64,000 nt of DNA from a virus (taxonomy: Duplodnaviria; Caudoviricetes), in the IMG/VR virus record IMGVR_UViG_3300034073_003276; one strand, 5' to 3'. The translations under genes and the position numbers were made by a program. Shown here piece after piece: positions 1,279-46,000 of this stretch. The notes under the pieces were generated by a model. It did not search any database and was not told the origin of the DNA. It was given only the letters and a program-made list of their open reading frames with translations. Positions within the stretch are counted from its first letter, which is position 1, and each line of letters begins with the position of its first letter.

Positions 1279-2886
1279 TTAGTCTCTTGGAGAATCATAT
1301 TTTGCTCTTGCTTCAGATTCACCTCTTTCCTTTTTTGTGAGTCCGTGCTTAACTGCTCTTGCAACTTGTCTGTTAGTCAAGCGTCTTTGTCTATCTTCTG
1401 GCGTTTCTTTAGCACCTCTTTCTTTCTTTGGTTGGCGAGAACCAGGATTCTCTTGCCTAAACTTAGAAAGAAGATGTGGGGTTTTTGCTCTCTTAAATTC
1501 TGCCTCCACTTTCTCATCTTTTTCCGAAATAACTTCTTCAGAGGCAACCATTACAATAGGATTCTTTGCACCCATTGCTCTTGCATAATTCTTAGCAAGA
1601 TTAATTGTAGTTGGGAGAGAGCGTGGATCCTTTTCTTCCTGCTCTTTTTTTGCCTTCTTATCTGCTTGAGCAACAGTTTCTTCTTTTACTGGTTTCTGAG
1701 GATTCTGAGGATTTTTCTTTGAACCAAATATTTGTTGAATTTTTTGTGGTAATTCATCAACTGCTTTTACAACCTTTGCAGGCATATTTGGAGCACCTCC
1801 ACCACTTTTTGGTTCTACTGCCTCTTTATGAGTTGGTAGTCCTTCATGCTTTGTCTTAGCATACTTCTTTGCTTCTTTTTTGCTCATACCTTCTGCTGCT
1901 TTTGCAACCTCAGGAGATGCAGGGGTTTCACCTTTTTTTGCAGCATAAACCATACCCATAAAGCGTTGTTGTGCTTTACTTACTGCCTTTTCAGTAATTA
2001 CAGCGGCACCCATATCATAGTGAGCAAGTTGCATACCACGACCACCATTGCTGGTGCCAGGTGCTTCAGGATTAACAGTAACTTTATTTTTACCCTTCAT
2101 TACATCAATTTTTTTATCAGAATCATCATTTTCACTCTTTACCTCACCGATGAATTCTTCAGCGACACCCTTTCTCTTTTCGATTGCTGCACCACGAACT
2201 TTACGACGATTCAGAAGATACTTATCAGTCTTATCATAGTCTCCATCATTATCAATATCCTTATCTTCTTGTCCGACTGGATCTAAACCTTTTCCCGATT
2301 TTGCTGCTGCAGTTTGCTCACCCTTTTTCTTTTCTCCTTCGTAAGGCTCACCATAACCAGTCATTTCAACTGACTCGATATTTGGATTTGCACGAAGCTC
2401 ACTAATCTTTTGACGATCTGCATATCTAACATATGAGCGACCGTCTTTTCCAGTAACTCTTACTTTATATTTCTTATGCTCTGCAGTCTCTAACTTTTCC
2501 ATATAAGTTAGACGAATTGGCTCTTGCTCTTTTTCCACACCTTCAACAAATACCTTGTAGAGAGCATTCGCTACGCTTGTAGAAGCTGCATCTTCAATAT
2601 TAAAGTCTTCTGCTTGCATACCACCGCTCTTACCGAAAAGTTTTTGTTTTACCATTGTTTTCTCCTGAGCACTCATACTACTGTTTTGCATATACTGTGA
2701 ATACGCTGAGCGAAGAGGGAGCTCCTCTCTTCTTGCTCTATAACGAATATCGTAAATAGCTTGCTTTACTCTTTTTTCTGGAGACTTCTTTTCATCTCCT
2801 CCTTTTTCTTCACCACCCTTACCAGCAGGAGCAGCAGCAGGAGCGTGCTTTCTTGCTGGAAGCTCCTCAGCGATATGTTTTTTCAT
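1279..2886 (-). CDS. Highly charged modular protein, probable internal head protein
   Basis: K/E-rich; IAEE, VAEE, ITEK, VKEE protease-type sites; DKDIDNDGD loop; DUF3008-like module KAVSKAQQRFMG...TKHEGLP (from memory). Confidence 0.55.
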   Translation of the reverse strand: MKKHIAEELPARKHAPAAAPAGKGGEEKGGDEKKSPEKRVKQAIYDIRYRARREELPLRSAYSQYMQNSSMSAQEKTMVKQKLFGKSGGMQAEDFNIEDAASTSVANALYKVFVEGVEKEQEPIRLTYMEKLETAEHKKYKVRVTGKDGRSYVRYADRQKISELRANPNIESVEMTGYGEPYEGEKKKGEQTAAAKSGKGLDPVGQEDKDIDNDGDYDKTDKYLLNRRKVRGAAIEKRKGVAEEFIGEVKSENDDSDKKIDVMKGKNKVTVNPEAPGTSNGGRGMQLAHYDMGAAVITEKAVSKAQQRFMGMVYAAKKGETPASPEVAKAAEGMSKKEAKKYAKTKHEGLPTHKEAVEPKSGGGAPNMPAKVVKAVDELPQKIQQIFGSKKNPQNPQKPVKEETVAQADKKAKKEQEEKDPRSLPTTINLAKNYARAMGAKNPIVMVASEEVISEKDEKVEAEFKRAKTPHLLSKFRQENPGSRQPKKERGAKETPEDRQRRLTNRQVARAVKHGLTKKERGESEARAKYDSPRD

Positions 2887-2895
2887 GAGAAAACT

Positions 2896-4221
2896 TTACT
2901 TTCTACTCTTTTTTCTATATTTATTTATGAAATCTCTAGCACTAAGATTATATCCACTATAAGGTTTTGCTCCATATTGAAGATTTGTTTTATCACCCTT
3001 CTCAAATCCAGGTGTCATATCCGCAACATACTTGAAATATCCACTAGTTCCAACCAATGTGTTTGGTTTTCCAGGAAGTCTCATCTTCCTATCCATCTTG
3101 ACCTCAGTATATTCTCTGAGATCTTTAATCCAAGACTTAAACATTTGCCCAGATTCTGTGACACAAATCAAATAGTTTGTTCCTCTACGAATAATACGAC
3201 CAACTAAACCAGTATTCAGATTCTCAACAATTTCACCCATTTTAAAGATAGACTCTGTGATGTAATTTTCACGAAGAGATTGAAAATCAAGTTTAGGTGC
3301 AATCTCCCAAATATCCCATCCCTCTTTGACACTCATAGAACCACGAAGAATATCAAATAATTCTTTCGCTTCTGAGCGTTTTACTTCTGGAGGAAGACCA
3401 GATCTGAAAGTTTTAAAGTCATTCTCTGCAGCAGCAAGTCTCATTCTTGAAGCAGACATTCCTTCCACACCCTTTGCATCTGGGTCCCTGTCTCCTGCAG
3501 AAACCACTTCAATATTATCAAACTGATACAACTGACCATTATAGTTGTTAGAAAGTTTTTCAAACTCCTTAACTCTGTCAGCACCGCCAATGATTCTCAC
3601 ATTGGTATATCCATCATTATGTGCCATTCTTAAGACATCAAAGATAGTTTTAGTATTAGGATCATTTACAATATTGCCAGCGTGAGAGGGATAAAACCTC
3701 TGCATATATGCAATTTTAGTATCAGGGTCTAATGGATTCTTTTTCTTATCTTGACTTCTTGATGGAAATATTAAATATTGACCATCCTCATCTTGTGATG
3801 CTGATTGTGCAGCAACATCCATCAGTTGCTGGTGTCCAATTGTAGGTGGATTAAATCTACCAAAAGCAACAGTCAATGTGCCTTTTGTTTTTTCAACAGG
3901 TGGAGGACCTACTTGTTGAGGAGGTTCTTGTGCTGCTGCTTGCTGCTCTGGTGCTGGTGCCTGTTGTTGTGCTGCTTGCTGTTTTAACTCTGGATCAGTG
4001 TATCCAGGAGAAGCAATAGTTTTTTCCTTTTCAGTCTGCTTTGGATCTTTTGCACCAACTCTTTGACGCTTGTTGTAAAACTTCAATTCTCCGCCTTCTG
4101 TTTTTGCAACAAACTCACCTTGACGATCATACCATCCACCGTGCCCATCTCCAACAAGTCCAAGACGCTTTGCTTGTTGTGAGGCAGATGCTTCTGATAT
4201 AAATTGGAAAAAACTTTTCAT
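2896..4221 (-). CDS. Cytidyltransferase-like (HxGH) nucleotidyltransferase
   Basis: VAFGRFNPPTIGH motif, GGADR, MSASRMR; typical cyanomyovirus gene. Confidence 0.85.
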   Translation of the reverse strand: MKSFFQFISEASASQQAKRLGLVGDGHGGWYDRQGEFVAKTEGGELKFYNKRQRVGAKDPKQTEKEKTIASPGYTDPELKQQAAQQQAPAPEQQAAAQEPPQQVGPPPVEKTKGTLTVAFGRFNPPTIGHQQLMDVAAQSASQDEDGQYLIFPSRSQDKKKNPLDPDTKIAYMQRFYPSHAGNIVNDPNTKTIFDVLRMAHNDGYTNVRIIGGADRVKEFEKLSNNYNGQLYQFDNIEVVSAGDRDPDAKGVEGMSASRMRLAAAENDFKTFRSGLPPEVKRSEAKELFDILRGSMSVKEGWDIWEIAPKLDFQSLRENYITESIFKMGEIVENLNTGLVGRIIRRGTNYLICVTESGQMFKSWIKDLREYTEVKMDRKMRLPGKPNTLVGTSGYFKYVADMTPGFEKGDKTNLQYGAKPYSGYNLSARDFINKYRKKSRK

Positions 4222-4268
4222 TATTTACTTTAAATTATGTATCAGATACTTCTTATAATATGTATTTA

Positions 4269-5357
4269 TTAAAAATTATAGATTGGGAGCGCAGTTTGCC
4301 TGTATCTTCTTGGATATATTGCAGTCCTAGTCTCAGGAACTACTCCATTTGGCGTTTGAGTTGGTCTTCCAGATCTATAAGTTGTTATAAGAACTGCCCT
4401 ATATCCACTATTATCATCTAAAAATTCTGATGTCTGCCCATTAAGAGATTGATGACCACTAAAAGATAATCTATAGTAAATATCACCATCATCATTAACT
4501 AGGGGATTAAAAATAAATTGCCCTTGACCAATCATATGTACATTATCTGGACCATAACTACCACCATAATCAGGTCCATAAACTGACATATTGACAAGAT
4601 TTGAATCCCTAATCAAAGAATACACTGCTCTAGTAAGTCTTCCACTAGAATTAAAAGGATTATTAGAAATTCTTGGTGATCCACCAGTGGCATCATCATA
4701 TAAAGAATATAGTTTAGTCAGATATTGTTGGACTTCCGGATGATTGTATATTTTTGCAGCATCCTGAATATTTCCAGCCACTGTAGAAACTCCGCCATAT
4801 TGTCCGAAAGCTTCTGGACCTACACCATCCTTATGTGAAATGAATAATACCCCTTTTCCCAAGGAATTTTTAAACTTAAAGTCACTTTTTGCTTCACGAC
4901 CATGAATTCTATTTGGCACTTTTTCTATACCAGTAATTCCTAAAAACATACCAATACCTGGAACTAAAATATCAATGCCAACTCTATTGCCACCACCAAT
5001 ACCAGCAACTTCTTCTAATTTTTGTATTGTAGCAACAGTAGCATCTAAAGTTCTTTGCTCAGCGTCAGCGCCACCTCTACCAGTTGGTTTTCTTATTGCA
5101 GTTATTCTAAGATATCCGGTTTTACCATTTAATCTAACATTAGCATATTTGCTTCTACCAATTTGTGTAAATTGTTTAGATACTATGTTTACTTCCTGGC
5201 CAGCATTTACATAATCTACAACTTCCTTTAAAGTTATATTTTTATAAACTGGCTCATTTACTATACCATTTTCTATTGGATACTTAATATTTACTGAGTT
5301 TGGATTATTTGTAACATATTTTGCCCAATCTGCAGGTTTTCCACCAAGAGTCGCCAT
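4269..5357 (-). CDS. Putative PD-(D/E)XK restriction-endonuclease-like protein with SH3-like N-terminus
   Basis: Start reassigned to MATLGGK (5357) because the longer ORF runs through tRNA-Leu; AEQ...KSDF-x11-SHK motif; CTAAATA upstream. Confidence 0.5.
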   Translation of the reverse strand: MATLGGKPADWAKYVTNNPNSVNIKYPIENGIVNEPVYKNITLKEVVDYVNAGQEVNIVSKQFTQIGRSKYANVRLNGKTGYLRITAIRKPTGRGGADAEQRTLDATVATIQKLEEVAGIGGGNRVGIDILVPGIGMFLGITGIEKVPNRIHGREAKSDFKFKNSLGKGVLFISHKDGVGPEAFGQYGGVSTVAGNIQDAAKIYNHPEVQQYLTKLYSLYDDATGGSPRISNNPFNSSGRLTRAVYSLIRDSNLVNMSVYGPDYGGSYGPDNVHMIGQGQFIFNPLVNDDGDIYYRLSFSGHQSLNGQTSEFLDDNSGYRAVLITTYRSGRPTQTPNGVVPETRTAIYPRRYRQTALPIYNF

Positions 5358-5375
5358 TTTTTTATTTTTATTTAG

Positions 5376-5448
5376 TGCCCGTGAGAAGATTCGAACTTCC
5401 ACTGTATGGATTCTAAGTCCACCCTCTCTACCGTTGGAGTACACGGGC
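5376..5448 (-). tRNA. tRNA-Leu(UAG), 73 nt, short variable loop, no encoded CCA
   Basis: GCCCGTG/CACGGGC acceptor, GTGGA-CTTAGAA-TCCAT anticodon arm, GGAAG-TTCGAAT-CTTCT T arm, A73. Confidence 0.85.
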
Positions 5449-5453
5449 ATAAA

Positions 5454-5526
5454 TGGAGAATAGCGGATTCGAACCGCTGACCTTCTGCGTGCAAAGCAGA
5501 CGCTCTACCAACTAAGCTAATTCCCC
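5454..5526 (-). tRNA. tRNA-Ala(UGC)
   Basis: Canonical cloverleaf GGGGAAT...ATTCTCCA with G3:U70 and TTTGCAC anticodon loop. Confidence 0.97.
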
Positions 5527-5535
5527 AATAAAACT

Positions 5536-6555: not shown

Positions 6556-7934
6556 TAAAATTTAAATCCTTCAAACGACTTTTTGGGTTTTTTGTCTTCA
6601 TTATCATTATACTCATCATCCTGCCCACTGTCAAGTATGTCATTCTGGGCAGTCTGCTCACAATCATAAAGACGCATTTTAGCACGGTCAATCCCAACAA
6701 TAAATCTCTTGTAGATTGTTGGGTCATTATAACGATTCTTCAATTGCTTTACCATAATTTGACCAAGTTGCTCCAACTCTTCCGTGCTAATCAGAGCAAA
6801 CATAAGGTCGGCAGTAGCAGGCAAACCAAAACTTTCAGAAGTATCAGTCAATTCCACATCAGAAGATCCAAAACCACTTCTTGTAGTTTGTGTCGCACTG
6901 ACAATCGGCACATTGAATTCTACTGCCAGACCACGAAGTTCTTCAGCAATTGATTTGATATAAGAATAAGAATTGATAGAACTATTTGCCTTGTGCCTAG
7001 AGGAAGCACAGATATTCAAATAATCAACAAAGATAATATCTGGTTTGAATGATTTCTTCAGAGACAATTCATTCAGAAGTGCCTTGAAGTGACCACAGTG
7101 TGCCGAAGCAGTTGGATACTCTTTGATGATTAGAGTGCCTTGTGTTTTCTTGGCAAGACTTGTGACCTTATTCTCAAACATTTGACGAGGCAAATCTGTC
7201 AATTGCTGAATTGGCACATTCAGAAGGTTTGCGTCAATTCTTTCAGCAATTCGCTCCTCCGCCATTTCAAGAGTGATGTAGAGAACGTTCCTGCCTTGCA
7301 GTAGGACGGAAGAAGCAACATGGCACATAAAGAGACTTTTTCCGACACCCGTACCAGCAAGAGCGATATTGAGAGTCTTATTAGGAAGACCACCTTTTGT
7401 AATTTTGTTAAAATAATCAAGATCGAATTCAATCTTGTCTTCTTTTCTGTGATAAAATTCATAACGCTCTTCGTAATTTTGTAAGTAATCGTGACCGATA
7501 TTATTGTCAAAACTTACAGCAAGAGCATCAGATAGAATACTTGGAATCGCATCACGATTCTTCTTTTCATTATTACCATCGGCAATATGAATCGATTCCA
7601 TAAGTGCCAAATAGATGGCACGGTCACGACACCACTTTTCAGTAGTATCAAGTAACCATTGCTTTTCTACGGGCGAATCATTCAGAGACTTATTGATTTC
7701 TCTGACTTCTTTTACTTGCTCTTCAGTTAAGTCTGTGCGATTTTCTACCTCAATATTGAGTGCTTCGATGGTGATTGCTGAACCATATTTGACAATGAAT
7801 TGAACAATCTCCTCAAAAATGACCTTCTCGGATTTGCTCTCAAAATAATCTGGTTGTATGAAAGGAATGACTTTACGGGAATAATCTTCATTGTATACTA
7901 GGTTTCTAAGGATTGTAGTTTCAATTCTTTCCAT
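6555..7934 (-). CDS. gp41: Replicative DNA helicase
   Basis: AGTGVGKS Walker A, FVDYL Walker B, QLKNRY; T4-like synteny. Confidence 0.96.
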   Translation of the reverse strand: MERIETTILRNLVYNEDYSRKVIPFIQPDYFESKSEKVIFEEIVQFIVKYGSAITIEALNIEVENRTDLTEEQVKEVREINKSLNDSPVEKQWLLDTTEKWCRDRAIYLALMESIHIADGNNEKKNRDAIPSILSDALAVSFDNNIGHDYLQNYEERYEFYHRKEDKIEFDLDYFNKITKGGLPNKTLNIALAGTGVGKSLFMCHVASSVLLQGRNVLYITLEMAEERIAERIDANLLNVPIQQLTDLPRQMFENKVTSLAKKTQGTLIIKEYPTASAHCGHFKALLNELSLKKSFKPDIIFVDYLNICASSRHKANSSINSYSYIKSIAEELRGLAVEFNVPIVSATQTTRSGFGSSDVELTDTSESFGLPATADLMFALISTEELEQLGQIMVKQLKNRYNDPTIYKRFIVGIDRAKMRLYDCEQTAQNDILDSGQDDEYNDNEDKKPKKSFEGFKF

Positions 7935-8491
7935 TACTTATAATGCAAATATGTGCTCATGATATACTTTGGACCACTTATTGTAGCATTTCCTTTATGT
8001 GGAAACATCCAAAGTGGTGGGAACACTAATAATGTTCCTTTCTTCGGTTGAATAGTCAAATCTTTAAATACGGTTTCCCCACCTGATTCTACATCATTCA
8101 AATACCACATGAAAGATAAAAATCTCCGTGCAGAAGGATAGTCTAGCACATCAACATGAGTATCAAAACGATCTTCACCACCAGGATTATACTTCTTTAT
8201 ACGAAATTGCTCAAAAGCATGGTCTGTAGGAAACACTCTTTTATCCACAAATTCATAATACTTATCACGATAAGTAAAAACATTTTTAATTACATGATTA
8301 TGAACTTGATTGACCTCAGAAGAAATTTCCTTGTTTTCAGTTAGATTAAACTGGGTAAAGTTTGGTTTTCCTTCATTCTCAAATCTTTCATGCTTATCTG
8401 TTACCTGCTCAAATAATGAACTCAAGAAATCACAGATATCAGACTCTAAAGCGTTTTCATAGATGTGAATAAAATCATTAACTTCATCCAT
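7934..8491 (-). CDS. 2OG-Fe(II) oxygenase
   Basis: HVD...WYLNDVESGGET...FPH...KY pattern. Confidence 0.9.
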   Translation of the reverse strand: MDEVNDFIHIYENALESDICDFLSSLFEQVTDKHERFENEGKPNFTQFNLTENKEISSEVNQVHNHVIKNVFTYRDKYYEFVDKRVFPTDHAFEQFRIKKYNPGGEDRFDTHVDVLDYPSARRFLSFMWYLNDVESGGETVFKDLTIQPKKGTLLVFPPLWMFPHKGNATISGPKYIMSTYLHYK

Positions 8492-8493
8492 AA

Positions 8494-9072
8494 TTAATCT
8501 TCCTCTATATAAAAAATATCTGGATAATTTCCACTTTTTGCCCTATACCTCAATTGTCTTAAGGTTAAACCTTTTGCCCCACCATTTCTAAAACATTTGG
8601 AAGAATCTTCCCATATTATACCGTAAACCGATATTTTTTTTGAGTTGTAATTACTTACAGATTTTTTTATCTCACTTATCAAAGAAGCAGTTTCTGTAGA
8701 ATTAATTTTTCCAAGTTTATTCAGTAAGATGCTCTGCTCCCTTTTCTTTTGTTTATATTCTTCAGATTGATGCGATTGTTTCCATTTTTCAGATTTCAAT
8801 CTTGCCTCCGTTAGTTTTTCACTATCCCTTTTACATCGACTAACTTGATCTTCATAAATTTTAGTTAATTCTTCATCGGATAAATTTCCACCAAGAAGTT
8901 GAAAAGCATATAAATCAGATATATTTTTATATACTAACCAACGACGATAATGGACTTCTTGGTGAAGTTTTCTTGGAAGTTTAACTAAATTACTTGAATC
9001 GTCAGTGCCCCCTTCATGTTTCGGAATAATGTGGTGTGTGTCTATAAACATATATATATGGTTAGTAACCAT
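8494..9072 (-). mobile_element. Free-standing HNH homing endonuclease (start may be ATG 9051)
   Basis: HHIIPKHEGGTDDSSNLVKL...H motif; AT-rich; between uvsX and the oxygenase; GATAAATA at 9076-9083. Confidence 0.85.
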
Positions 9073-9074
9073 AC

Positions 9075-10091
9075 TTATTTATCATTCTTTAGTCCATATG
9101 AAAATTCCTTTTTAGCAATTTCGTCAAGTTTTTTCATTACATCATCAGTAAAATATTCTTCAGGATTTCTTAGAATCTCCTTACCGTAAATTTTCTTACC
9201 ATTGATTTCATATCTACCAGCAACATTTTTCCAAAGACCACCAATTTCACCAAGTTCAAGCAGACCATAATATCTATCCAGACCTCTTTCATCATAATAA
9301 AGACGCACTTCAACATCTTTATTTTCTTTACTTAAACGGGATTTGTGAGTTTTTGCCTTTACTATATTTCCAACAATTTCAGTCCCATCCTTTTCCTTCT
9401 TCTTGCTTAGGAAAATAATTGTAGAAGCAGCATACTTTAATCCAGATCCTCCAGATTGCTCTTGAGTTGGCACATAAGCACCGACAACTTGATATACATG
9501 ATTAGTGACAATCATAGGAATATTTGCTTGCCCCAGTTTTAGCGTAAGCATACGGAAAGCACCTTTAACAAGTTGCGATTTAGTCATATCACGCACCTGC
9601 TTATCATTCAATGCATCAGTAATTTCCTTTTCAGTTGAAAGCATACCCAAAGAGTCTAGAACAAACATACAAGGTTTACGTTCCTCTACTGGTTTTTTCA
9701 TATACAGATCAACTGCCTTGAGTGCTTTGCCACGAAACTCTTCAATAGTGACAACATTTACTACAACAAGTCGTTGTGTATCAACACCACGACTTTCTAA
9801 AAGAGATTTAGTGACAGCAGCCTCAGTGTCAAAGTAGAGACAGTAACCATCGGGATTAGTATCAAGAAAATTCTTAACCACTGCGAGAGAGAAAAAAGTC
9901 TTTCCAGTAGAAGACTCTCCAGCAATAGCAGTAATCTTATTCCCAGATACACCACCAAATATACTACCTGAAACCAGTGCATTAAAAATGTATGAACCAG
10001 TATCAACATAAGTTTCTGTCTCATCAATATCGGAAGCGAGTTTGGTATACTCCCCACCAACCTCCTTTACAATTTCTTTAAGAAAATCCAT
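9075..10091 (-). CDS. uvsX: RecA-like recombinase
   Basis: GESSTGKT, FDTE, LDSLG, SGLKYAAS motifs; ATG at 10091. Confidence 0.96.
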   Translation of the reverse strand: MDFLKEIVKEVGGEYTKLASDIDETETYVDTGSYIFNALVSGSIFGGVSGNKITAIAGESSTGKTFFSLAVVKNFLDTNPDGYCLYFDTEAAVTKSLLESRGVDTQRLVVVNVVTIEEFRGKALKAVDLYMKKPVEERKPCMFVLDSLGMLSTEKEITDALNDKQVRDMTKSQLVKGAFRMLTLKLGQANIPMIVTNHVYQVVGAYVPTQEQSGGSGLKYAASTIIFLSKKKEKDGTEIVGNIVKAKTHKSRLSKENKDVEVRLYYDERGLDRYYGLLELGEIGGLWKNVAGRYEINGKKIYGKEILRNPEEYFTDDVMKKLDEIAKKEFSYGLKNDK

Positions 10092-10228
10092 CACTTTTTC
10101 TCCTGAGTTTGTTTATCTGCATAATTCATTTTAAAGGTCCAAAGTTTCTGATATAGTGCAGTATCTCCACCAAGACGCATTGCATTAATAATTGTATTCA
10201 GTTCTCGCTCATTAATAGGTAATTCCAT
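10091..10228 (-). CDS. Small hypothetical protein (45 aa, MELPINEREL...), not in ORF track
   Basis: Hand-translated; TGATG overlaps at both ends between the polymerase and uvsX. Confidence 0.75.
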   Translation of the reverse strand: MELPINERELNTIINAMRLGGDTALYQKLWTFKMNYADKQTQEKK

Positions 10229-11394
10229 CAGGTAAAAAATAATTCTAGGTTAACAGTTTTTTCTACATTCCATCCAATCGAATCGAGAATGGACTTCAAG
10301 GGTTCTACAAAACTCTTTTCAAATTGTAATTCATAATCAATGTATTTGTCAAGACCAAGTTCCTTTGGAAAATCTTGAATGAATGAAATGATATTCTCTT
10401 GAATGATATTTGGTTTTTTCAAATATATAAACTTAATTTTTTCTCCATTACCAATCAATGAATACTTATTAGTTAATTTTTTCTCTTTTATATAATGATT
10501 AAAAAGAAGTGCTCCACGAATATGGATTGGTGTTTTTTGAGCATAGATTGTGGAAGAAGAATAATACTTACGCACATCAGAAGCAGTTCTTGGAAAGGCA
10601 ATTTGCTCTGGTGGAAGTCTTTTAAATTCCTCCCGACACTTATCAATAAAATTAATCACATCTTCTTCAGTACCATTCATCATCAACTTTAGACCATCTT
10701 TAATCATTTGACGACAAGGTGCTGGAGTAGAAGATTTAACTGCTTCAATACCCATCATTTTCAGTTTAGGTTCTTCATATCGTACACCCTCACTGTCCCA
10801 TACATTGAGAATGTATCGTTTCTTAGCAGTCCAGATTCCACGCTCAGCAATATTCTCACGCTTCATCTGCATCTTCTGATCGTAAGCATTTACATACTCA
10901 GCCAATTCTTCGTAGCAACCTTCAATATACTTTTCAAGTTCCACCTTACAGACCTTATCAAGGAACGAAACAATGCTTTGAGTAGTTTTCTCTCTTCCTT
11001 TGAATATACATTCAACCAAAGGACCCATATTGAGATAGATAGAATCAGTATCTGAAGCAATAACATAATCAATATCCTCCGTTTTAAGAACTTTATTTAA
11101 ATAAGAATTCATCTTATTTTCAATCCAGCGAATAGAAACCTGTCCTGACAAAGTAATTGCTTCAGCATTCGCTAGTTTATAATAACGGAAATACTGATTA
11201 CCAATGGCACCATAGGCAGAGTTAAGTTGAATCTTCCTTGCCATTTGAATATTGTTGCAGCGTGAGATTTCTTTTTCAGCAGAATTTCTTAGTTTAATTA
11301 ACTCTTTATCTGAAAGATTTTTATATTTGTTATCAGAAGAAACAACAATTTCTTTTTGTTTCTCCTCCTTGTTACCACCAATTAAGTAACCCAT
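10228..11394 (-). CDS. gp43B: DNA polymerase B, C-terminal subunit (gp43B)
   Basis: KIQLNSAYG (motif B), SDTDS (motif C), KKRY, GIEAVKSSTP, clamp-binding tail LELFF. Confidence 0.93.
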   Translation of the reverse strand: MGYLIGGNKEEKQKEIVVSSDNKYKNLSDKELIKLRNSAEKEISRCNNIQMARKIQLNSAYGAIGNQYFRYYKLANAEAITLSGQVSIRWIENKMNSYLNKVLKTEDIDYVIASDTDSIYLNMGPLVECIFKGREKTTQSIVSFLDKVCKVELEKYIEGCYEELAEYVNAYDQKMQMKRENIAERGIWTAKKRYILNVWDSEGVRYEEPKLKMMGIEAVKSSTPAPCRQMIKDGLKLMMNGTEEDVINFIDKCREEFKRLPPEQIAFPRTASDVRKYYSSSTIYAQKTPIHIRGALLFNHYIKEKKLTNKYSLIGNGEKIKFIYLKKPNIIQENIISFIQDFPKELGLDKYIDYELQFEKSFVEPLKSILDSIGWNVEKTVNLELFFT

Positions 11395-21240: not shown

Positions 21241-21432
21241 TTAAGACTGGACATGCTGATTTCGCAACTCATTCAAATAATCCTCACTCGCAATATGAGG
21301 AGTGTATCCAGGATAAAATTGCTTAACAATAGAACTAATACCCATCGCAGTAATCGCACTATCACACTTTACCCAGACTTCTTTAGTATCGTATTTAACG
21401 ACGTGTTCAAATGGAAATTTAGTCTTCTTCAT
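21241..21432 (-). CDS. Hypothetical protein (63 aa)
   Basis: MKKTKFPFEHVV...; start is uncertain. Confidence 0.55.
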   Translation of the reverse strand: MKKTKFPFEHVVKYDTKEVWVKCDSAITAMGISSIVKQFYPGYTPHIASEDYLNELRNQHVQS

Positions 21433-21976
21433 AAGTAAATGTTTTGTTTTTGACTTTTGTATCAAACTCACCAGTTCTTCCTGGTTTCATTTTACCAACT
21501 CCAACATTCTTTCCTTTACCAGGCCAAGATGTTTTTGAAGTTCCTTTAAGTGTAGCAGACCCTTTTGGTTTACGTTGAATCAATACAGAATCTTGGTCGT
21601 CTTTGGATGAACCCTTTACATTACGCTTGTGCTTTAATCCACCTTCGGTTCCAAGTTTCTCTACTGTCTTCTTAAACTTCCTCTTACCCATTTTACCAGA
21701 AGAAACTACGTGAGATTTTTCACCCACTTTTTTCTCTTCTGGAGTTCCTGGGTTTTCAGTGTAACGTCCAGATACTTTAGTAGGTCCTGGAAGACCAGCA
21801 CCTCTAATTCTTCTTTCGGTTCTTGCAGACCTTTCCTTGTTTTCTTTTTTAGATTTGTCCCCCCTTTGACCTGAAAGAATCGCTATTCCACCCTTTTCAG
21901 ACTTTCTCATTACACGAGTAAGAGAAGTCTCTTGGATAGAATAACATTCTATCATAAATTCTTGAAAAGTCTTCAT
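21419..21976 (-). CDS. Basic protein with capsid-targeting-like N-terminus
   Basis: MKTFQEFMIE start; CTAAATA at 21997-22003. Confidence 0.6.
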   Translation of the reverse strand: MKTFQEFMIECYSIQETSLTRVMRKSEKGGIAILSGQRGDKSKKENKERSARTERRIRGAGLPGPTKVSGRYTENPGTPEEKKVGEKSHVVSSGKMGKRKFKKTVEKLGTEGGLKHKRNVKGSSKDDQDSVLIQRKPKGSATLKGTSKTSWPGKGKNVGVGKMKPGRTGEFDTKVKNKTFTYEED

Positions 21977-32453: not shown

Positions 32454-33845
32454 TCACATGAGGTTAGCAACCTTAACTCTTCTGTAGTAGTTGTTTGCGT
32501 TGGTGGTCAGAGCACCTGCGCCTGCGTCGATACCCTGTGCGAATGGGTTTGCAACCATTCCGTAACGGGTCTTAAAGCCGATCTTAGGCTGGAAGGTGTT
32601 CTCTCCAACTGCACGAACCATCTGCAGAGGAACGTATGGGCAGTAGAAGATACCTGCGTCATAAGGTGAAGAACCCTTATAACCAACAACGTAAAACTGG
32701 TTAGCAGATACGTTTGCTGAATATGGGTCGATATAGACGCGATACTTGCCTTGAAGGACTCCAGCAAAGGTGTTGCCAGTGTCATCGACATTCAGGTTAG
32801 CGTTAAGTGCAGGGGTGTAATCAAGGACACCAGCCATTGCAAGTGCTGAAGCAACGTCAGCAGAGCAAAGGATAGTGTTACCCTTTCCTCTACGAGTTTG
32901 CTGAGCAATCGCGTTAGCGTCGCGCTCGATTTGGAAAATAAGACCCTTGAACTTCTCAACCGACCAACGACCGTTGGAGTCAACGTCGAGGTCAAAAGTA
33001 CCAGCAGAAGCGGTGTTGACTTGAGCACCAGGCTTAGCAACCTTATAGATTGTTCTGATGACTTCGCGGTTGATTTCAGCAAGAATTTCGCTAGACAGAA
33101 TATTAGCGAGTTCTGCTTCTGCATTCAGACCGTGAATTGCCTTCAGGTCCTGAGCAAGCTCAAGGCTGTATTCTGCTTTCAGAGCGCGGCTCTTAGCAGT
33201 AACGGTGACCTTCTCGATTGAGAATGCCATCTCGTTGAATTGTGCTCCACCAGACTCGCCAAGTGACTCAGCGTTGTCGGTTCTCATGCCCTGACCAACG
33301 TTATATGCTTGCTGGTTGGCGTTGGTAGCATCGAGGATTGAGGGGTTGCTTCCTGCCTGAGCAGTAGTACCCATACCAACGGTGCCGTTAGTCCAACCTT
33401 CGGTCTGAGTAAAGGTTGATCCCTGACCAGAGTATGCAGAATCTACTTCATTGTAGAATGTCTCGTCTCCAGCCTGGTTGGTGTAACGAGAGCGCATTGC
33501 GAAGATAAGTCCAGTAGGACCATTCATTGGTTGAACGCCACAAAGATCGTAAGCGATCAGGTTAGGCATCGAGCGTCTGATTAATGAAATCAGTACTGGG
33601 TCGAAACCTTGAAGTGCTCCAGTGCTGCTACCACTGAGACCTGTGCCGGTACCAGTTGAAGTGCTAGTGAAGTTGGTTGGTGCTTCGGATAGAAAATCAC
33701 GCTCTTCGCGGATTTCTCTTTCTTGGTTTTCTAGCAGGATTGCAGTTACCGCTCTACGATGTGAATCTTTGATTCCATCCATTCCTTGATAGTCAAGGAT
33801 AGGAGCCCACTTCTCCTGCAGATACTCGGTGTTGTACATCTGCAT
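32454..33845 (-). CDS. gp23: Major capsid protein
   Basis: EKWAPIL, GVQPMNGPTGLIFAMR, KSRALKAEY, FQPKIGFKTRYG. Confidence 0.98.
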   Translation of the reverse strand: MQMYNTEYLQEKWAPILDYQGMDGIKDSHRRAVTAILLENQEREIREERDFLSEAPTNFTSTSTGTGTGLSGSSTGALQGFDPVLISLIRRSMPNLIAYDLCGVQPMNGPTGLIFAMRSRYTNQAGDETFYNEVDSAYSGQGSTFTQTEGWTNGTVGMGTTAQAGSNPSILDATNANQQAYNVGQGMRTDNAESLGESGGAQFNEMAFSIEKVTVTAKSRALKAEYSLELAQDLKAIHGLNAEAELANILSSEILAEINREVIRTIYKVAKPGAQVNTASAGTFDLDVDSNGRWSVEKFKGLIFQIERDANAIAQQTRRGKGNTILCSADVASALAMAGVLDYTPALNANLNVDDTGNTFAGVLQGKYRVYIDPYSANVSANQFYVVGYKGSSPYDAGIFYCPYVPLQMVRAVGENTFQPKIGFKTRYGMVANPFAQGIDAGAGALTTNANNYYRRVKVANLM

Positions 33846-33894: not shown

Positions 33895-35049
33895 TCACTT
33901 TTTAGCGACTCTACTGAGAGTTTGAAGATATGCTTCCATAATTGGTGAAACTGAAGTATTTGCAGTTTCAATAGAAGTTTCTTCTGATAAATTCTCAGTT
34001 ACATCTCTCTGAGTACCAGCATTAGATGGGAAATATGATTCCCTCAGAGTTACTAGTTTCTCACGATAGCTCTCTTCACTATCAAACCCAACATTTTCGG
34101 CAAGAGAAGCGAGTTTGTCCTTCTGAGAAAGTGCAAGACCCTCAGCGACATCTGCAAAAATTACATCAGCAACTGACTCTGCTAATCTTCTATTCAGAGC
34201 AACATTTCTTTCGATTTGCTCGTTGAGTTTTTCTTCCATTTCATCAAGTTTATCTACCATGCTCTCGATGACATCATATCTATCTTCAGGGATTGTTACA
34301 TAATGATCTTCAAAAAGACTCTTCATTCCTTGTAGGAATGATTCGGTCATTTCAGTCTTAAGACCGTGCTCAACTGCGAGTGCATTCTCTTGAATCCACT
34401 CATCAGCAACATACTCAAGGTATGCATCGACTCTATCAGAAAGGCTCTCTTTGATAGCCTCAATTTCTTCTACGAGTGTCTGCTCATATGCCTCTTGAAG
34501 TTGCTCTTTGATTTCAGCAACTTTAGTCTTGATAGCAGCTTCGAAAATGGTGCGTGCCTTCTCTTGGAATTCTTCGGAGAGTTCTTCGCCTTCGAGAAGA
34601 GCATTGACATCTTCTTCGATGTTAAACTCTTCTTCGACTTCCTCTTCCTCGTCTTCCTCTTCACCATGCTTCTTCATTTTGGACTTAGACTTAGGAGTCT
34701 CCTCCTCGCCTTCCTCCTCTTCTTCAGCAGCTTCAGAAACTACTTCATCATCAATTTCTTCGAGGATTTCTTCCTCTTCATCAGTTTCTTCCTTAACACC
34801 TTGCATAGGCATAGCAGCTGCAGCTTTCGCATTCACTACATCTTTAACCTGAGCAAGAGTTGCTCCTGGAGTTTTTAGAGTTGCCGAATCATCATCGGTC
34901 TTGTAATTTTCTGGAGTAGGACCTCCGAGATCTTCCCAACCACCAGTTTGACCAGGAGTTTCCCCAGTCAGTTTGTGCATTGGTTCGGCAGGTGCAGCCC
35001 CTTTGGTTACTACGTTTTCCATTTCTTGTAAATTGCTACCAACGGACAT
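33895..35049 (-). CDS. gp22: Prohead core scaffolding protein
   Basis: Acidic; LSEEFQEKARTIFEAA; position before gp23; TATAAATA at 35081-35088. Confidence 0.93.
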   Translation of the reverse strand: MSVGSNLQEMENVVTKGAAPAEPMHKLTGETPGQTGGWEDLGGPTPENYKTDDDSATLKTPGATLAQVKDVVNAKAAAAMPMQGVKEETDEEEEILEEIDDEVVSEAAEEEEEGEEETPKSKSKMKKHGEEEDEEEEVEEEFNIEEDVNALLEGEELSEEFQEKARTIFEAAIKTKVAEIKEQLQEAYEQTLVEEIEAIKESLSDRVDAYLEYVADEWIQENALAVEHGLKTEMTESFLQGMKSLFEDHYVTIPEDRYDVIESMVDKLDEMEEKLNEQIERNVALNRRLAESVADVIFADVAEGLALSQKDKLASLAENVGFDSEESYREKLVTLRESYFPSNAGTQRDVTENLSEETSIETANTSVSPIMEAYLQTLSRVAKK

Positions 35050-35090: not shown

Positions 35091-35741
35091 TTATAGATTT
35101 GAGAGAAATTCTTGGAAAAGACCAAGTTTATGCTCTTCAAGTCTTTTTTGGTCTACTAAGGTATTAATTCTTCTCTGTGTTTGCTCTGCAAACTTTTCAC
35201 GAAGAATTCCACCTTCCCAAACCCACTCCTTACCTTCCATAATTCCTTGCACAAAAGCATCAGGAGCAGAAGGGTCGGCAACGATATCGGCTGCAGTTGC
35301 GAGCATGAAATCTTCACCAACAATCTTATGACCCTCATTGGTCATCTTAAGTGAACCTACACCACGAGAAGAAACACCAAGACAAACTCCTTCACCAATG
35401 AGTGATTTTGCAATCTTACCCATTGGAGTTTCAAGAAGTTGTGCTTTTCCTCTAAAATTGTTTCCTTCTTTAGTGAGAGAAACAATTTTGTGAGAAACGC
35501 GGTCAAGATTTACAGTTGGACCATCTGGATGACCAAGTTCTCCAAGAGCACGACCCTTATCAATAAAAGATTCGGTGTATCTTTGAACTTCACGAGAAAG
35601 AGTATCCATAGGATACATTCTACCATTGCGGTTGCAAATGTTTCCTTGAAGGAAAACTCCTTCAATATACATTTTTTTATTTGCACCCTTTCCTTCAGTA
35701 ATAAATTCTACTTTTTGGATTTCTTCTGTGATGAGTTTCAT
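35091..35741 (-). CDS. gp21: Prohead protease
   Basis: NRNGRMYP, GELGHP, GVSSRG, DPSAPDA. Confidence 0.96.
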   Translation of the reverse strand: MKLITEEIQKVEFITEGKGANKKMYIEGVFLQGNICNRNGRMYPMDTLSREVQRYTESFIDKGRALGELGHPDGPTVNLDRVSHKIVSLTKEGNNFRGKAQLLETPMGKIAKSLIGEGVCLGVSSRGVGSLKMTNEGHKIVGEDFMLATAADIVADPSAPDAFVQGIMEGKEWVWEGGILREKFAEQTQRRINTLVDQKRLEEHKLGLFQEFLSNL

Positions 35742-44321: not shown

Positions 44322-44630
44322 TCAATCACTCCACGATAGTCTTTCTGGTCTGTATCTTTGTGCGTTTTTAACTGTTACTGAATTTGATGCCATTGGGTAT
44401 ACATTATGCACAATTGCTCCAGGATATTCTCCCTGAAGTTGCTCTGCAAGAGCATTCTTATCCATAATATTACCTTCGACTTCAAGGCGATATAATTTAC
44501 CTTCCCAAACAACATCTGCAAAAAATGATTCAGTTGCTTGCTCTGGTTGAGAAGAACCTACATTTAAGGTTCCATTGAAGTCACCGTTGATAGTGATACT
44601 TTCTGAAATAAATTGCTTAAAACTTTTCAT
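44322..44630 (-). CDS. Hypothetical protein with capsid-targeting-like start
   Basis: MKSFKQFISES. Confidence 0.6.
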   Translation of the reverse strand: MKSFKQFISESITINGDFNGTLNVGSSQPEQATESFFADVVWEGKLYRLEVEGNIMDKNALAEQLQGEYPGAIVHNVYPMASNSVTVKNAQRYRPERLSWSD

Positions 44631-44635
44631 TTTCT

Positions 44636-46000
44636 TTACCACTTAACTTTGTTTGCCCAATATGCAGCAGACATTTTACCTTTTGCAATGTTCTTTGCAT
44701 GTCTGGTTTTAAATCTATGACGACGACTTGCATATGCTTTAGATTCCCCTTTCTTTTTAGGAGAACCTTTTACACCAAGTTGTCCGAAACGAATAATTTT
44801 TTCTTTTCCACCTTCGCAAGCTTTTACAATATGAGACTTTCCAGTCTCACCAGATCCGTGTGCTTGTGCTTTAGGTTTATTGCACTTCATTTTAGATTTG
44901 TCAACCGCTTCAATCATAAACTCTGAGAATGTTTTTTGTTCTGCCCTCATCTCTCCACTATCAACATAATCGGCAGCAGAATCTAAGTAATCTGATGCTT
45001 TGGTAATCTTTGATTGAACCCACGCCTCAACATTACCTTCACCCTTCATTTTCTTACGAAGTCTCTTCGCTGCAGAAACAATGGTAGAAAGTTGAGACCT
45101 CACCATTGAGTGCTCGTGATCGTAAGACTCTGGGAAATTGCCGGGATGAACTGTTGCAATATTATACTTCTTCTGATTTGGTGCTAGTGGTTCTGGAATA
45201 GAAAACATATCCCAATATTTGGGACCATATCTACATTCATCCCTAGTTTCAGACTTTTCACACTTAGGGCAATATCTTTTCATTTCCATTTCCTCCTTTA
45301 CTTTTACACAATTATTGTATGTTTTACCAAACATCTTTTTATTTCCTTTCTTCTCATAACCAGGCCAACACTTCTTTGCTTCATCAACCATAGTTTCTTC
45401 GGACTTTGTGCCCCAATTATCAGCGCCAACTTTACGACACTTTACAAGTGCTCCAGAGGCATATGCACTTGGCCAGACATCATATCTAGATTTTACTTTA
45501 TGGTAGCAAGCATCTTTTTTACCACTACCTTTACCCTTGATGTCTCTTTGTGCTTCGTTAATTTGCATTTCTTCTTTGAGTCCTGGTTCTGGTTTAATGT
45601 AATTTGGATCTTTTTTACCTTTAGAAAAAGTTTTTACCAAAGTTGGTTTTGCTCCGCCACTTTTTGCCTGCTGACCTGGGTCTTTTTCACGCTTACGACG
45701 AACTGCCGCTTTGATAATTGCCTCTCCTTTTTTACCCTTTCTCTTAAGTGAAGCAAGTCTTGCACTACTAAAACATTTTGGCGTTTTAGTTTCTCCAGGT
45801 TCGTTGGCACAAGGTGATCCATCTGCTTGCACCCATCCAGGTTTACCTTCTTTAGATTTAGAACCTTTAAACCAATGGTGTAAAGATCCACCCCTTTCCT
45901 CATTCATTTTTTTCTTGCGCCCCTGACAATGAGCTCTTTGAGAAAATCCTTTTGGATTGTCGCAATCAATAGATTTTTTATATTTGTCCGACCAACCCAT
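44636..46000 (-). CDS. Modular basic protein, probable internal head (poly)protein
   Basis: K/C-rich modules separated by xxE sites; CTAAATA upstream. Confidence 0.55.
   Translation of the reverse strand: MGWSDKYKKSIDCDNPKGFSQRAHCQGRKKKMNEERGGSLHHWFKGSKSKEGKPGWVQADGSPCANEPGETKTPKCFSSARLASLKRKGKKGEAIIKAAVRRKREKDPGQQAKSGGAKPTLVKTFSKGKKDPNYIKPEPGLKEEMQINEAQRDIKGKGSGKKDACYHKVKSRYDVWPSAYASGALVKCRKVGADNWGTKSEETMVDEAKKCWPGYEKKGNKKMFGKTYNNCVKVKEEMEMKRYCPKCEKSETRDECRYGPKYWDMFSIPEPLAPNQKKYNIATVHPGNFPESYDHEHSMVRSQLSTIVSAAKRLRKKMKGEGNVEAWVQSKITKASDYLDSAADYVDSGEMRAEQKTFSEFMIEAVDKSKMKCNKPKAQAHGSGETGKSHIVKACEGGKEKIIRFGQLGVKGSPKKKGESKAYASRRHRFKTRHAKNIAKGKMSAAYWANKVKW

Follow-up and report, generated by a model that had tools for sequence, protein, structure and literature searches.

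A nucleotidyltransferase of T4-like cyanophages carries a T4-type capsid-targeting leader and is probably loaded into the phage head

In the 64-kb window (the whole stretch of DNA that was analyzed, 64,000 nucleotides), we identified an open reading frame for an enzyme that is probably head cargo: a 441-amino acid nucleotidyltransferase, encoded from an ATG at positions 2896-4221 of the minus strand, whose first residues resemble the sequence that targets T4 internal proteins to the capsid. Our overall reading, which we consider probable, is that the protein is made late as a precursor, is directed into the head by its leader, is cleaved by a gp21-type protease, and is likely ejected for early action in the next host. 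Packaging into the head is strongly supported, with virion presence being taken from the literature on orthologues. Ejection together with the DNA would follow by analogy with T4's internal proteins and with Alt. The ORF corresponds to the cyanomyovirus "cytitidyltransferase" (T4-GC190), a HIGH-motif nucleotidyltransferase, and it matched phrog_395, 'cytidyltransferase', with an E-value of 1.5e-104. Coordinates of the relevant features are given in Table 1.

Table 1. Features of the window that bear on packaging of the nucleotidyltransferase.
Feature	Coordinates	Strand	Basis
Basic C-terminal tail, residues 373-441, and stop codon	2896..3105	-	low pLDDT
Small beta-barrel domain (SH3/Tudor/KOW-like), residues 301-372	3106..3321	-	fold search, Z 6-7
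HIGH-motif nucleotidyltransferase core, residues 111-300	3322..3891	-	Pfam PF01467; pLDDT above 95
Gln/Ala/Pro-rich disordered linker, residues 51-110	3892..4071	-	low pLDDT
N-module, residues 11-50: helix and three-stranded beta-meander	4072..4191	-	pLDDT about 90
Residues 1-10 (MKSFFQFISE), the leader: putative propeptide for capsid targeting, with cleavage predicted after E10	4192..4221	-	T4 likeness and conservation
Late-promoter-like element AATAAATA, with its start 48 nt upstream of the ATG	4263..4270	-	motif scan, start at position 4269
Basic protein of 535 aa encoded downstream (DUF3008), same gene run as the enzyme	1279..2886	-	Pfam/phrog searches
Second leader-bearing ORF, 185 aa, MKTFQEFMIE then C, SAM-lyase-like, very basic	21419..21976	-	Pfam S-AdoMet_lyase
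gp23 major capsid protein	32454..33845	-	alignment with T4 gp23
gp22-type scaffolding protein	33895..35049	-	phrog_237, E 1.3e-110
gp21-type prohead protease	35091..35741	-	phrog_207, E 2.4e-80
Third leader-bearing ORF, 102 aa, MKSFKQFISE then S, between g16 and g17	44322..44630	-	phrog_1742
Internal leader copy KTFSEFMIE then A, inside ORF 44636-46000	44909..44935	-	motif scan

The capsid-targeting sequence of T4 IPI, IPII, and IPIII was described by Mullaney and Black in 1996 (as reviewed in PMC9026906 and PMC3012670). Its ten residues alone are enough for targeting in T4, with residues 4 and 7 serving targeting and residues 8 and 10 serving processing (PMC9026906). A sequence-only reading of this DNA had pointed to the N-terminus MKSFFQFISEA and to its likeness to the MKTYQEFIAE leader of IPII and IPIII. 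The translation of ORF 2896-4221 gave the former, and NC_000866, in which IPII and IPIII both begin with MKTYQEFIAE followed by A, confirmed the latter. The leader of the enzyme, also followed by A, agreed with IPII and IPIII at all four critical positions (4, 7, 8, and 10): F4 and F7 correspond to Y4 and F7 in the T4 proteins, and the processing motif (I/L)-x-E is present, at the sequence level, as I8-S9-E10 before A11. When the window was translated in six frames, the pattern K.[FY].[EQ]F[ILVM].E occurred four times, compared with a mean of 0.01 and a maximum of 1 in 300 shuffles, and three of the four copies directly follow an initiator Met. The likeness to the T4 sequence exceeds chance. 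Our literature search found no paper connecting the T4 leader with cyanophages, and a search on the misspelt database name "cytitidyltransferase" found nothing.

Conservation of the leader was assessed in 79 orthologous IMG/VR loci with 45-88% identity. M1, K2, F4, F7, [LIFV]8, and E10 were kept in 78 or 79 of these loci (F4 and E10 in 78, F7 and [LIFV]8 in all 79), and leader positions 3, 5, 6, and 9 as well as the linker varied. In distant orthologues the leader stays at the extreme N-terminus, with the catalytic domain starting from approximately residue 15 or after a linker of ~100 amino acids, and two homologues from jumbo phages, EcMJ_156 and Paride_0106, possess the catalytic core and lack the leader. 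Given this fixed N-terminal place despite a variable linker, together with the existence of leaderless homologues, the leader is an add-on rather than part of the fold. In longer homologues the enzyme is joined to a peptidoglycan glucosaminidase, PAP2, and a Pol-beta nucleotidyltransferase, and such multidomain fusions are as expected for ejected cargo.

Leader-bearing ORFs were counted over the 64-kb window, and beyond the leader the other proteins that carry it show no similarity to the enzyme. The SAM-lyase-like ORF scored 29.5 bits against a cutoff of 28 for Pfam S-AdoMet_lyase, is preceded by CTAAATA beginning 27 nt upstream, and has as its homologue S-CREM2 gp6, a virion protein. The 454-amino acid ORF 44636-46000, which contains the internal leader copy, has an S-SCSM1 homologue that is also a virion protein; the residues that follow this copy match a separate 96-amino acid family, and phrog_7595 covers residues 365-454.

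Orthologues of the enzyme have been reported in the published virion proteomes of five cyanophages: S-SCSM1, S-CBWM1, S-SZBM1, S-CREM2, and S-SM1. The virion association of the family is thus already published and is not new. The enzyme showed 46% identity with S-SCSM1 ORF91, its core showed 37-39% identity with S-SZBM1_140 and S-CREM2 gp154, and the leader was present in all three of these sequences. When the whole S-CREM2 genome was scanned with a strict leader regex, the matches were exactly gp6, gp13, and gp154, all of which belong to the 52-protein virion proteome of this 221-ORF phage (hypergeometric P = 0.012); the S-CREM2 virion proteins gp12, gp14, and gp136 start with looser leaders. 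The leader does not always predict detection, because the small strict-leader ORFs _191 and _192 of S-SZBM1 are not among the 30 virion proteins detected for that phage, and the 106-amino acid S-SCSM1 homologue _30, one of two strict matches, is not flagged as a virion protein. Small protein size and shallow proteomes may account for these cases. The strict regex also missed the S-SZBM1 enzyme, the leader of which is one residue shorter. Packaging, which the sequence-only reading had inferred, is supported by the T4-critical residues of the leader, its sharing among proteins, its conservation, the leaderless homologues, the late-promoter-like element, and the presence of orthologues in virions of five cyanophages.

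The window also encodes the head-assembly proteins on which such a leader would depend in T4-type loading. The gp21-type protease shares 77 identical positions with T4 gp21 over a 235-column alignment, and gp23 of the window contains FLSE/A aligned to the T4 gp23 cleavage site FLTE65/A. Removal of the leader of the enzyme after E10 is accordingly a prediction from these motifs, and would be carried out by the gp21-type protease. Genes neighboring the enzyme correspond to S-SCSM1 virion proteins, with the 535-amino acid protein being homologous to virion proteins _92 and _93 of that phage; the upstream ORF 4269-5450 has no counterpart in S-SCSM1_90.

With regard to expression, two TAAATA-type late promoter elements had been proposed, at 4263-4270 and 4222-4227. 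Both elements exist. The former is late-promoter-like; a promoter role for this gene was rejected for the latter, in which GTAAATA directly abuts the start codon and leaves no room for a leader RNA. The TATAAATA motif was found in nine copies on the coding strand, eight of them within 90 nt upstream of a start, and in one copy on the other strand. Among the orthologous loci, [ACT]TAAATA was present within 90 nt upstream in 68 of 79. As judged from these motifs, the enzyme gene sits behind a putative late promoter. For expression timing, the P-HM2 paper does not mention the enzyme gene. The periodically expressed genes of a field study include, of relevance, only a 'glycerol-3-phosphate cytidylyltransferase'.

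In the predicted structure, the N-module, which matches the N-terminus of phrog_3561, is separated from the catalytic core by the linker, for which pLDDT was about 45-60 over residues 51-100. The Q/A/P linker noted previously was recovered as a Gln/Ala/Pro-rich stretch at residues ~79-107 that is predicted to be disordered, and both its length and its sequence differ between orthologues. The C-terminal beta-barrel also matches phrog_4808 and phrog_22379; a fold search with this domain returned a generic barrel and no functional lead, and an atlas feature search returned only unnamed viral clusters with scores of 0.80-0.81.

The catalytic domain was described previously as an HxGH nucleotidyltransferase, and this description holds, with the signature being the TxGH variant TIGH (T127-H130; 3832-3843) and with matches to both phrog_395 and Pfam CTP_transf_like (PF01467), the latter covering residues 119-221 with a score above cutoff (E 5.9e-6). 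The second catalytic motif is SASRMR (S256-R261; 3439-3456), and P125, P126, H130, and R261 were invariant among 57 diverse homologues. From these motifs the enzyme is assigned to the HIGH-motif nucleotidyltransferase superfamily and is predicted to be catalytically intact. A Foldseek search with the core returned PPAT (CoaD), NadD, NMNAT, NadM, and citrate-lyase ligase, all with E-values of about 1e-6 and with TM-scores normalized to the hit of 0.6-0.72; NadM, NadD, and NMNAT were thus among the top fold matches, tied with PPAT and citrate-lyase ligase. The enzyme shares with these proteins a Rossmann-type fold and the (T/H)xGH and SxxxxR motifs, whereas it differs from them in having extra N- and C-terminal domains and shows only 13-19% identity.

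Every match in an NCBIfam search of the enzyme fell far below its cutoff. The whole protein scored 16.3 bits for TIGR00482 (cutoff of 112) and 16.0 bits for TIGR01526 (cutoff of 341), and the core alone (residues 105-305) scored 18.7 and 17.7 bits, respectively. The enzyme thus failed the curated NMNAT, NadD, and NadR models (16-19 bits versus cutoffs of 112-341) and is not a demonstrable NMNAT. A sequence search of solved structures yielded nothing significant; the best match, MJ0951 (E 0.19), has both motifs aligned and serves as a lead only. The usual database label, glycerol-3-phosphate cytidylyltransferase (TagD), derives from the Pfam family name only, and TagD/GCT was absent from the 50 best PDB and 30 best Swiss-Prot fold matches of the core.

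We propose that the gene gives rise to a late-expressed precursor of about 50 kDa that would consist of five parts: the T4-type leader, the N-module, the Gln/Ala/Pro linker, the TxGH ... SxSxxR nucleotidyltransferase, and the beta-barrel with its basic tail. During prohead assembly, the leader would bring the precursor into the scaffolding core. Cleavage after Glu10 by the gp21-type prohead protease would then remove the leader, and a mature enzyme of about 48 kDa would remain in the DNA-filled head. The enzyme would most likely exit with the DNA and act in the next host ahead of all phage gene expression. The sequence-only reading had suggested that the injected enzyme might modify a host target or counteract NAD- or nucleotide-based defense. 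The reaction may be transfer of AMP, or less likely CMP, from a nucleoside triphosphate, and the acceptor would be a small phosphorylated molecule, for example NMN/NaMN or a related precursor of a cofactor. In a bolder version of this proposal, which we regard as a doubtful possibility, T4-like cyanophages would load a whole set of enzymes by means of one portable cassette, made up of the leader and, in many cases, the 40-residue N-module. On this view the nucleotidyltransferase, as a core enzyme of the lineage, would be an obligatory first-strike enzyme, injected with the DNA, that makes or rebuilds an adenylylated cofactor such as NAD+ before phage genes are read. Candidate cargo for such a cassette includes the nucleotidyltransferase and a SAM lyase, as well as a kinase-like protein and large fusions of several enzymes.

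All of the evidence for packaging counts equally for an enzyme that is loaded by its leader and is not an ejected effector, but that acts in the prohead or head, for instance on packaged components, or is carried along as inert cargo or as a minor protein, either structural or scaffold-associated. Ejection itself is argued from analogy, and the beta-barrel and the basic tail (which has a pI of 10.05 and conserved VGT..Y and FINKYR patches) could simply bind packaged DNA. We nevertheless consider such retention unlikely, given that T4 proteins with a leader of this kind leave with the DNA, that the catalytic residues are strongly constrained even though nucleotide substrates should be scarce in a filled head, and that the other leader cargo includes a SAM-lyase-like enzyme, which could sensibly act only in the host cytoplasm. 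Slightly less likely still, in our estimation, is that the protein is an ordinary late cytoplasmic auxiliary metabolic enzyme for NAD, CoA, or CDP-alcohol synthesis, with the leader likeness reflecting a shared translation-start or folding feature and with detection in virions reflecting carry-over. The gene belongs to the cyanomyovirus core and routinely receives a metabolic annotation; core status is compatible with a general metabolic role and equally with a delivered effector. Carry-over of abundant late proteins is allowed for by those who published the proteomes, and peptide counts for the enzyme were low (three for S-CREM2 and two for S-SZBM1). Carry-over is, however, hard to square with five independent proteomes. 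The conserved positions are also exactly those needed for targeting and cleavage in T4. The leader remains at the very N-terminus while the linker varies, is lacking in some homologues, and is common to unrelated proteins that are likewise found in virions.

The predicted model contains a single helix (residues 4-19) that spans the predicted cut site, and the same leader and N-module together head the S-CREM2 virion proteins gp12 and gp14. Both observations would suit a leader that is mainly a zymogen-type propeptide, one that blocks enzyme activity in the producing cell up to the point of cleavage, with targeting provided by the N-module (residues 11-50) or other parts; control of activity has been raised for the T4 Alt propeptides by review authors. 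Many family members and the other leader-bearing ORFs of the window have the leader without the N-module, however, and the sufficiency of the ten residues in T4 also argues against this explanation, which we regard as very improbable and which overlaps with packaging and ejection of the enzyme rather than excluding them.

Loading of the enzyme as we propose it resembles that of the T4 internal proteins in several respects. In both systems a ten-residue N-terminal leader, MK-x-aromatic-x-x-F-(I/L)-x-E followed by Ala or Ser, is found on proteins of a single phage that are otherwise unrelated, the phage encodes a protease of the gp21 type and a scaffold of the gp22 type, and the gene lies behind a late promoter, which is putative here. 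The cargo differs: instead of a small basic protein it is a 48-kDa multidomain enzyme, and its gene is core to the lineage, not a hypervariable accessory gene; cleavage and ejection are only predicted for the enzyme. T4 Alt, a packaged and ejected ADP-ribosyltransferase, is likewise an enzyme carried in the head. Processing by gp21 at an (I/L)xE site and action on the next host are features of Alt that are predicted for the enzyme. Alt has an unrelated catalytic fold and chemistry, a propeptide of six residues (ITE-6) that is not of the internal-protein type, and additional C-terminal trimming, for which no comparable site is evident in the enzyme.

The cyanophage virion 'NMNAT' or 'cytidylyltransferase' proteins (T4-GC190) are orthologues of the enzyme, with the name NMNAT reflecting weak similarity only, and the proteome papers reported their presence and gave no loading mechanism. 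A T4-type leader acting as a head-loading tag would provide a simple explanation for why relatives of the enzyme, described as NMNAT-like, are found in purified cyanophage particles, an observation that those papers left unexplained. The rule M-K-x-F-x-x-F-(L/I)-x-E followed by A or S points to likely virion cargo in T4-like cyanophages, which are very abundant, and in the window it also picks out the SAM-lyase-like protein. The leader could serve as a tool for packing foreign proteins into the heads of cyanophages, a use already realized in T4. If the cargo is ejected, these enzymes would be at work within the first minutes after cyanobacteria of global importance are infected.

The 441-aa nucleotidyltransferase begins with a putative capsid-targeting leader, MKSFFQFISE/A (the slash marks the predicted cut site), that matches the T4 head internal proteins IPII and IPIII at all four key positions (F4, F7, I8, and E10). 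These T4 proteins start MKTYQEFIAE/A, and IPI starts MKTFKEFTS...ITE/A (NC_000866). According to a review (PMC9026906), residues 4 and 7 are the main determinants of capsid targeting in T4, and residues 8 and 10 are those of processing; T4 cleavage sites have the form (I/L)xE, such as ITE-6 and LTE-619 in the head-packaged ADP-ribosyltransferase Alt (PMC9026906 and the SPN3US paper). The searchable literature yielded no link between the cyanophage leader and the T4 sequence. Among 79 orthologous IMG/VR loci (45-88% identity), M1, F7, and a residue of [LIFV] at position 8 were kept in all, K2, F4, and E10 in 78 each, and A or S at position 11 in 74; positions 3, 5, 6, and 9 vary freely, as does the linker that follows. 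In the wider family the leader lies at the extreme NH2-terminus, followed by the catalytic domain from about residue 15 or beyond a linker of ~100 residues; it is absent from the jumbo-phage homologues EcMJ_156 (Escherichia phage vB_Ec-M-J) and Paride_0106 (Pseudomonas phage), which are catalytic cores alone of 177 and 190 aa. The leader is a signal appended to the enzyme, outside the enzyme fold.

Virion association of this enzyme family is already published. Orthologues have been reported in virions of the cyanophages S-SM1 ("Y", 25 counts; Table S8, PMC3037559), S-SZBM1 (_140), S-CREM2 (gp154), and S-SCSM1 (ORF91, named NMNAT), as well as S-CBWM1, as cited by the S-SCSM1 proteome paper. Three of these five orthologues start MRFRQFIIE/A, MKNFSSFLTE/A, and MKSFLQFLKE/A.

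The six-frame translation of the window contains four copies of the pattern K.[FY].[EQ]F[ILVM].E, compared with 0.01 expected from shuffles (Table), and beyond the leader the other proteins that carry it showed no relatedness to the enzyme. The 185-aa ORF, which has CTAAATA starting 27 nt upstream, narrowly exceeds the cutoff for Pfam S-AdoMet_lyase (29.5 versus 28 bits, profile positions 2-70 of 133), and gp6 of S-CREM2, its homologue, has been reported in virions; we consider the 185-aa protein a candidate SAM lyase delivered from the head. The 454-aa ORF, situated between g16 and g17, has a virion-protein homologue in S-SCSM1, and the part after its internal leader matches a separate 96-aa family (phrog_7595); the ORF looks like either two fused cargo genes or a polyprotein cleaved by the head protease.

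The window also encodes a gp22-type scaffold, gp23, and a gp21-type prohead protease with 77 identical positions to T4 gp21 in a 235-column alignment. The T4 gp23 maturation site, FLTE65/A, aligns with FLSE/A of the window gp23, nearly the same tetrapeptide as FISE/A of the enzyme. Two (I/L)xE motifs lie near the NH2-terminus of the protease itself, and such a motif (LIE-9) has been noted in T4 gp21.

To scan the complete S-CREM2 genome, we took ATG-initiated ORFs of at least 50 aa in six frames that start M[KR].[FYL]..[FLYM][ILVMT].E. Exactly three matched (gp6, gp13, and gp154), and all three were detected in the published virion proteome, which covers 52 of the 221 ORFs (hypergeometric P, 0.012). 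Looser leaders, sought post hoc, were present on three more nonstructural virion proteins (gp14, gp12, and gp136). The two strict hits of S-SZBM1 (_191 and _192) are missing from its 30-protein virion list, which is shallower than that of S-CREM2, and one of two in S-SCSM1 is not flagged as a virion protein; the missed families in both are small proteins. The leader rule is a useful predictor of virion cargo that did not repeat cleanly in S-SZBM1 and S-SCSM1 and may not be sufficient by itself.

Enzyme residues 11-50 (the N-module; pattern like A..A..GL...G.G.W.D..G..VA....GEL) align with the post-leader regions of the virion proteins gp12 and gp14 and with the NH2-terminus of phrog_3561, which the gp12 body matches. 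Annotated as Cas9-like, gp12 had no Pfam match in the present analysis; gp14 had a weak match to Pkinase. Leader and N-module are common to these three proteins and thus cassette-like on different virion enzymes, and this similarity suggests that the leader and 40-residue N-module may form a portable loading cassette.

Table. Features of the window, the enzyme, and S-CREM2
Feature	Position	Description
Leader copy 1	2896-4221 (-)	Enzyme NH2-terminus, MKSFFQFISE/A
Leader copy 2	44322-44630 (-)	102-aa ORF between g16 and g17, MKSFKQFISE/S
Leader copy 3	21419-21976 (-)	185-aa very basic ORF (pI 10.2), MKTFQEFMIE/C
Leader copy 4, internal	44909-44935 (-)	~Residue 356 of 454-aa basic ORF 44636-46000, KTFSEFMIE/A
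Late-promoter-like element AATAAATA	4263-4270 (-)	Starts 48 nt upstream of enzyme ATG
535-aa basic protein	1279-2886 (-)	Downstream of enzyme
393-aa ORF as listed	4269-5450 (-)	Overlaps tRNA-Leu
tRNA-Leu	5375-5448	Upstream of enzyme gene
tRNA-Ala	5453-5527	Upstream of enzyme gene
Family B DNA polymerase	10228-11394 and 11394-12863 (-)	Split over adjoining ORFs, 489 and 388 aa
Prohead protease	35091-35741 (-)	Starts MKLITEE...VEFITEG
Enzyme helix and three-stranded beta-meander	Residues 4-19 and 29-48	pLDDT ~90
Enzyme Gln/Ala/Pro-rich linker	Residues 51-110	Disordered
Enzyme Rossmann-type core	Residues 113-300	Very confident
Enzyme core motifs	Residues 127-130 and 256-261	TIGH and SASRMR
Enzyme small beta-barrel	Residues 331-370	
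Enzyme basic COOH-terminal tail	After barrel	Poorly predicted
S-CREM2 gp12	7704-10313	LRFASFMAE/A, 16 residues precede
S-CREM2 gp14	10579-12846	VKRFDAFLTE/E, GTG start
S-CREM2 gp136		MQTFSMFFSE/D

The window derives from a T4-like cyanomyovirus, and every gene lies on the minus strand, including those for a DnaB-type helicase, UvsX, DNA polymerase, MazG, gp13-gp23 head and tail proteins, and terminase. The DNA polymerase of S-CREM2 is split likewise, annotated as subunits A and B. The enzyme, also present on a ~208-kb contig, is encoded by a gene long labelled "cytitidyltransferase" (T4-GC190). A tblastn search matched 566 phage records, most of them from myoviruses of Synechococcus and Prochlorococcus (closest, S-SRM01 at 65% and S-SKS1 at 60%), and 4331 clusters matched at E < 0.001 among 1.84 billion representative proteins. 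The AlphaFold model (mean pLDDT, 81.8) has five regions. The start, Q/A/P linker, and nucleotidyltransferase domain described in the sequence-only reading were confirmed. Across 57 diverse homologues, P125, P126, H130, and R261 never vary, and the fold matches PPAT, NadD, NMNAT, NadM, and citrate-lyase ligase (13-19% identity, E ~1e-6 each). Scores against curated NMNAT, NadD, and NadR models fell far under the cutoffs, a negative outcome for membership in the NMNAT families, and a sequence search of solved structures detected none. The barrel is a generic SH3/Tudor/KOW-like fold (Z, 6-7). The enzyme is therefore probably an active HIGH-motif nucleotidyltransferase, and the database labels cytidylyltransferase and NMNAT are both nominal. 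That it adenylylates NMN is a reasonable guess, if a rather unlikely one.

On the coding strand TATAAATA has nine copies, versus one on the other, and for eight of the nine a start follows within 90 nt, although such upstream sequence makes up only 7.7% of the window. The spacing for the enzyme gene is similar to that for gp23 (46 nt) and gp18 (43 nt), and the heptamer lies within 90 nt upstream in 68 of 79 orthologous loci. Of two TAAATA-type late elements proposed earlier, the one at 4263-4270 is late-promoter-like; that at 4222-4227 abuts the ATG and was rejected as a promoter for this gene. The enzyme gene lies in a run with those for the 535-aa basic protein and a 286-aa protein, whose S-SCSM1 counterparts (_92, _93, and _95) are virion proteins. 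In S-SCSM1 the 535-aa protein is represented by a pair of separate virion proteins, _92 and _93 (the latter DUF3008), and is therefore a gene fusion in the window phage. The true start of the 393-aa ORF, whose product matches phrog_13937 and had no Pfam match, is probably Met32 (position 5357).

Long metagenomic homologues of 770-1000 aa (P0156, P0161, P0175, P0182, P0205, and P0251) fuse the nucleotidyltransferase to PAP2 phosphatase, DUF5824, peptidoglycan glucosaminidase, or a Pol-beta-type nucleotidyltransferase, and most retain a leader-like NH2-terminus; these architectures are in the style of multidomain ejected proteins. Packaging of the enzyme in the head, as the sequence-only reading had proposed, is well supported by the match, conservation, and sharing of the leader and by orthologues in five virion proteomes. 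By analogy with T4, the enzyme would be ejected with the DNA, and we file it as T4-type capsid-targeted cargo, a known kind.
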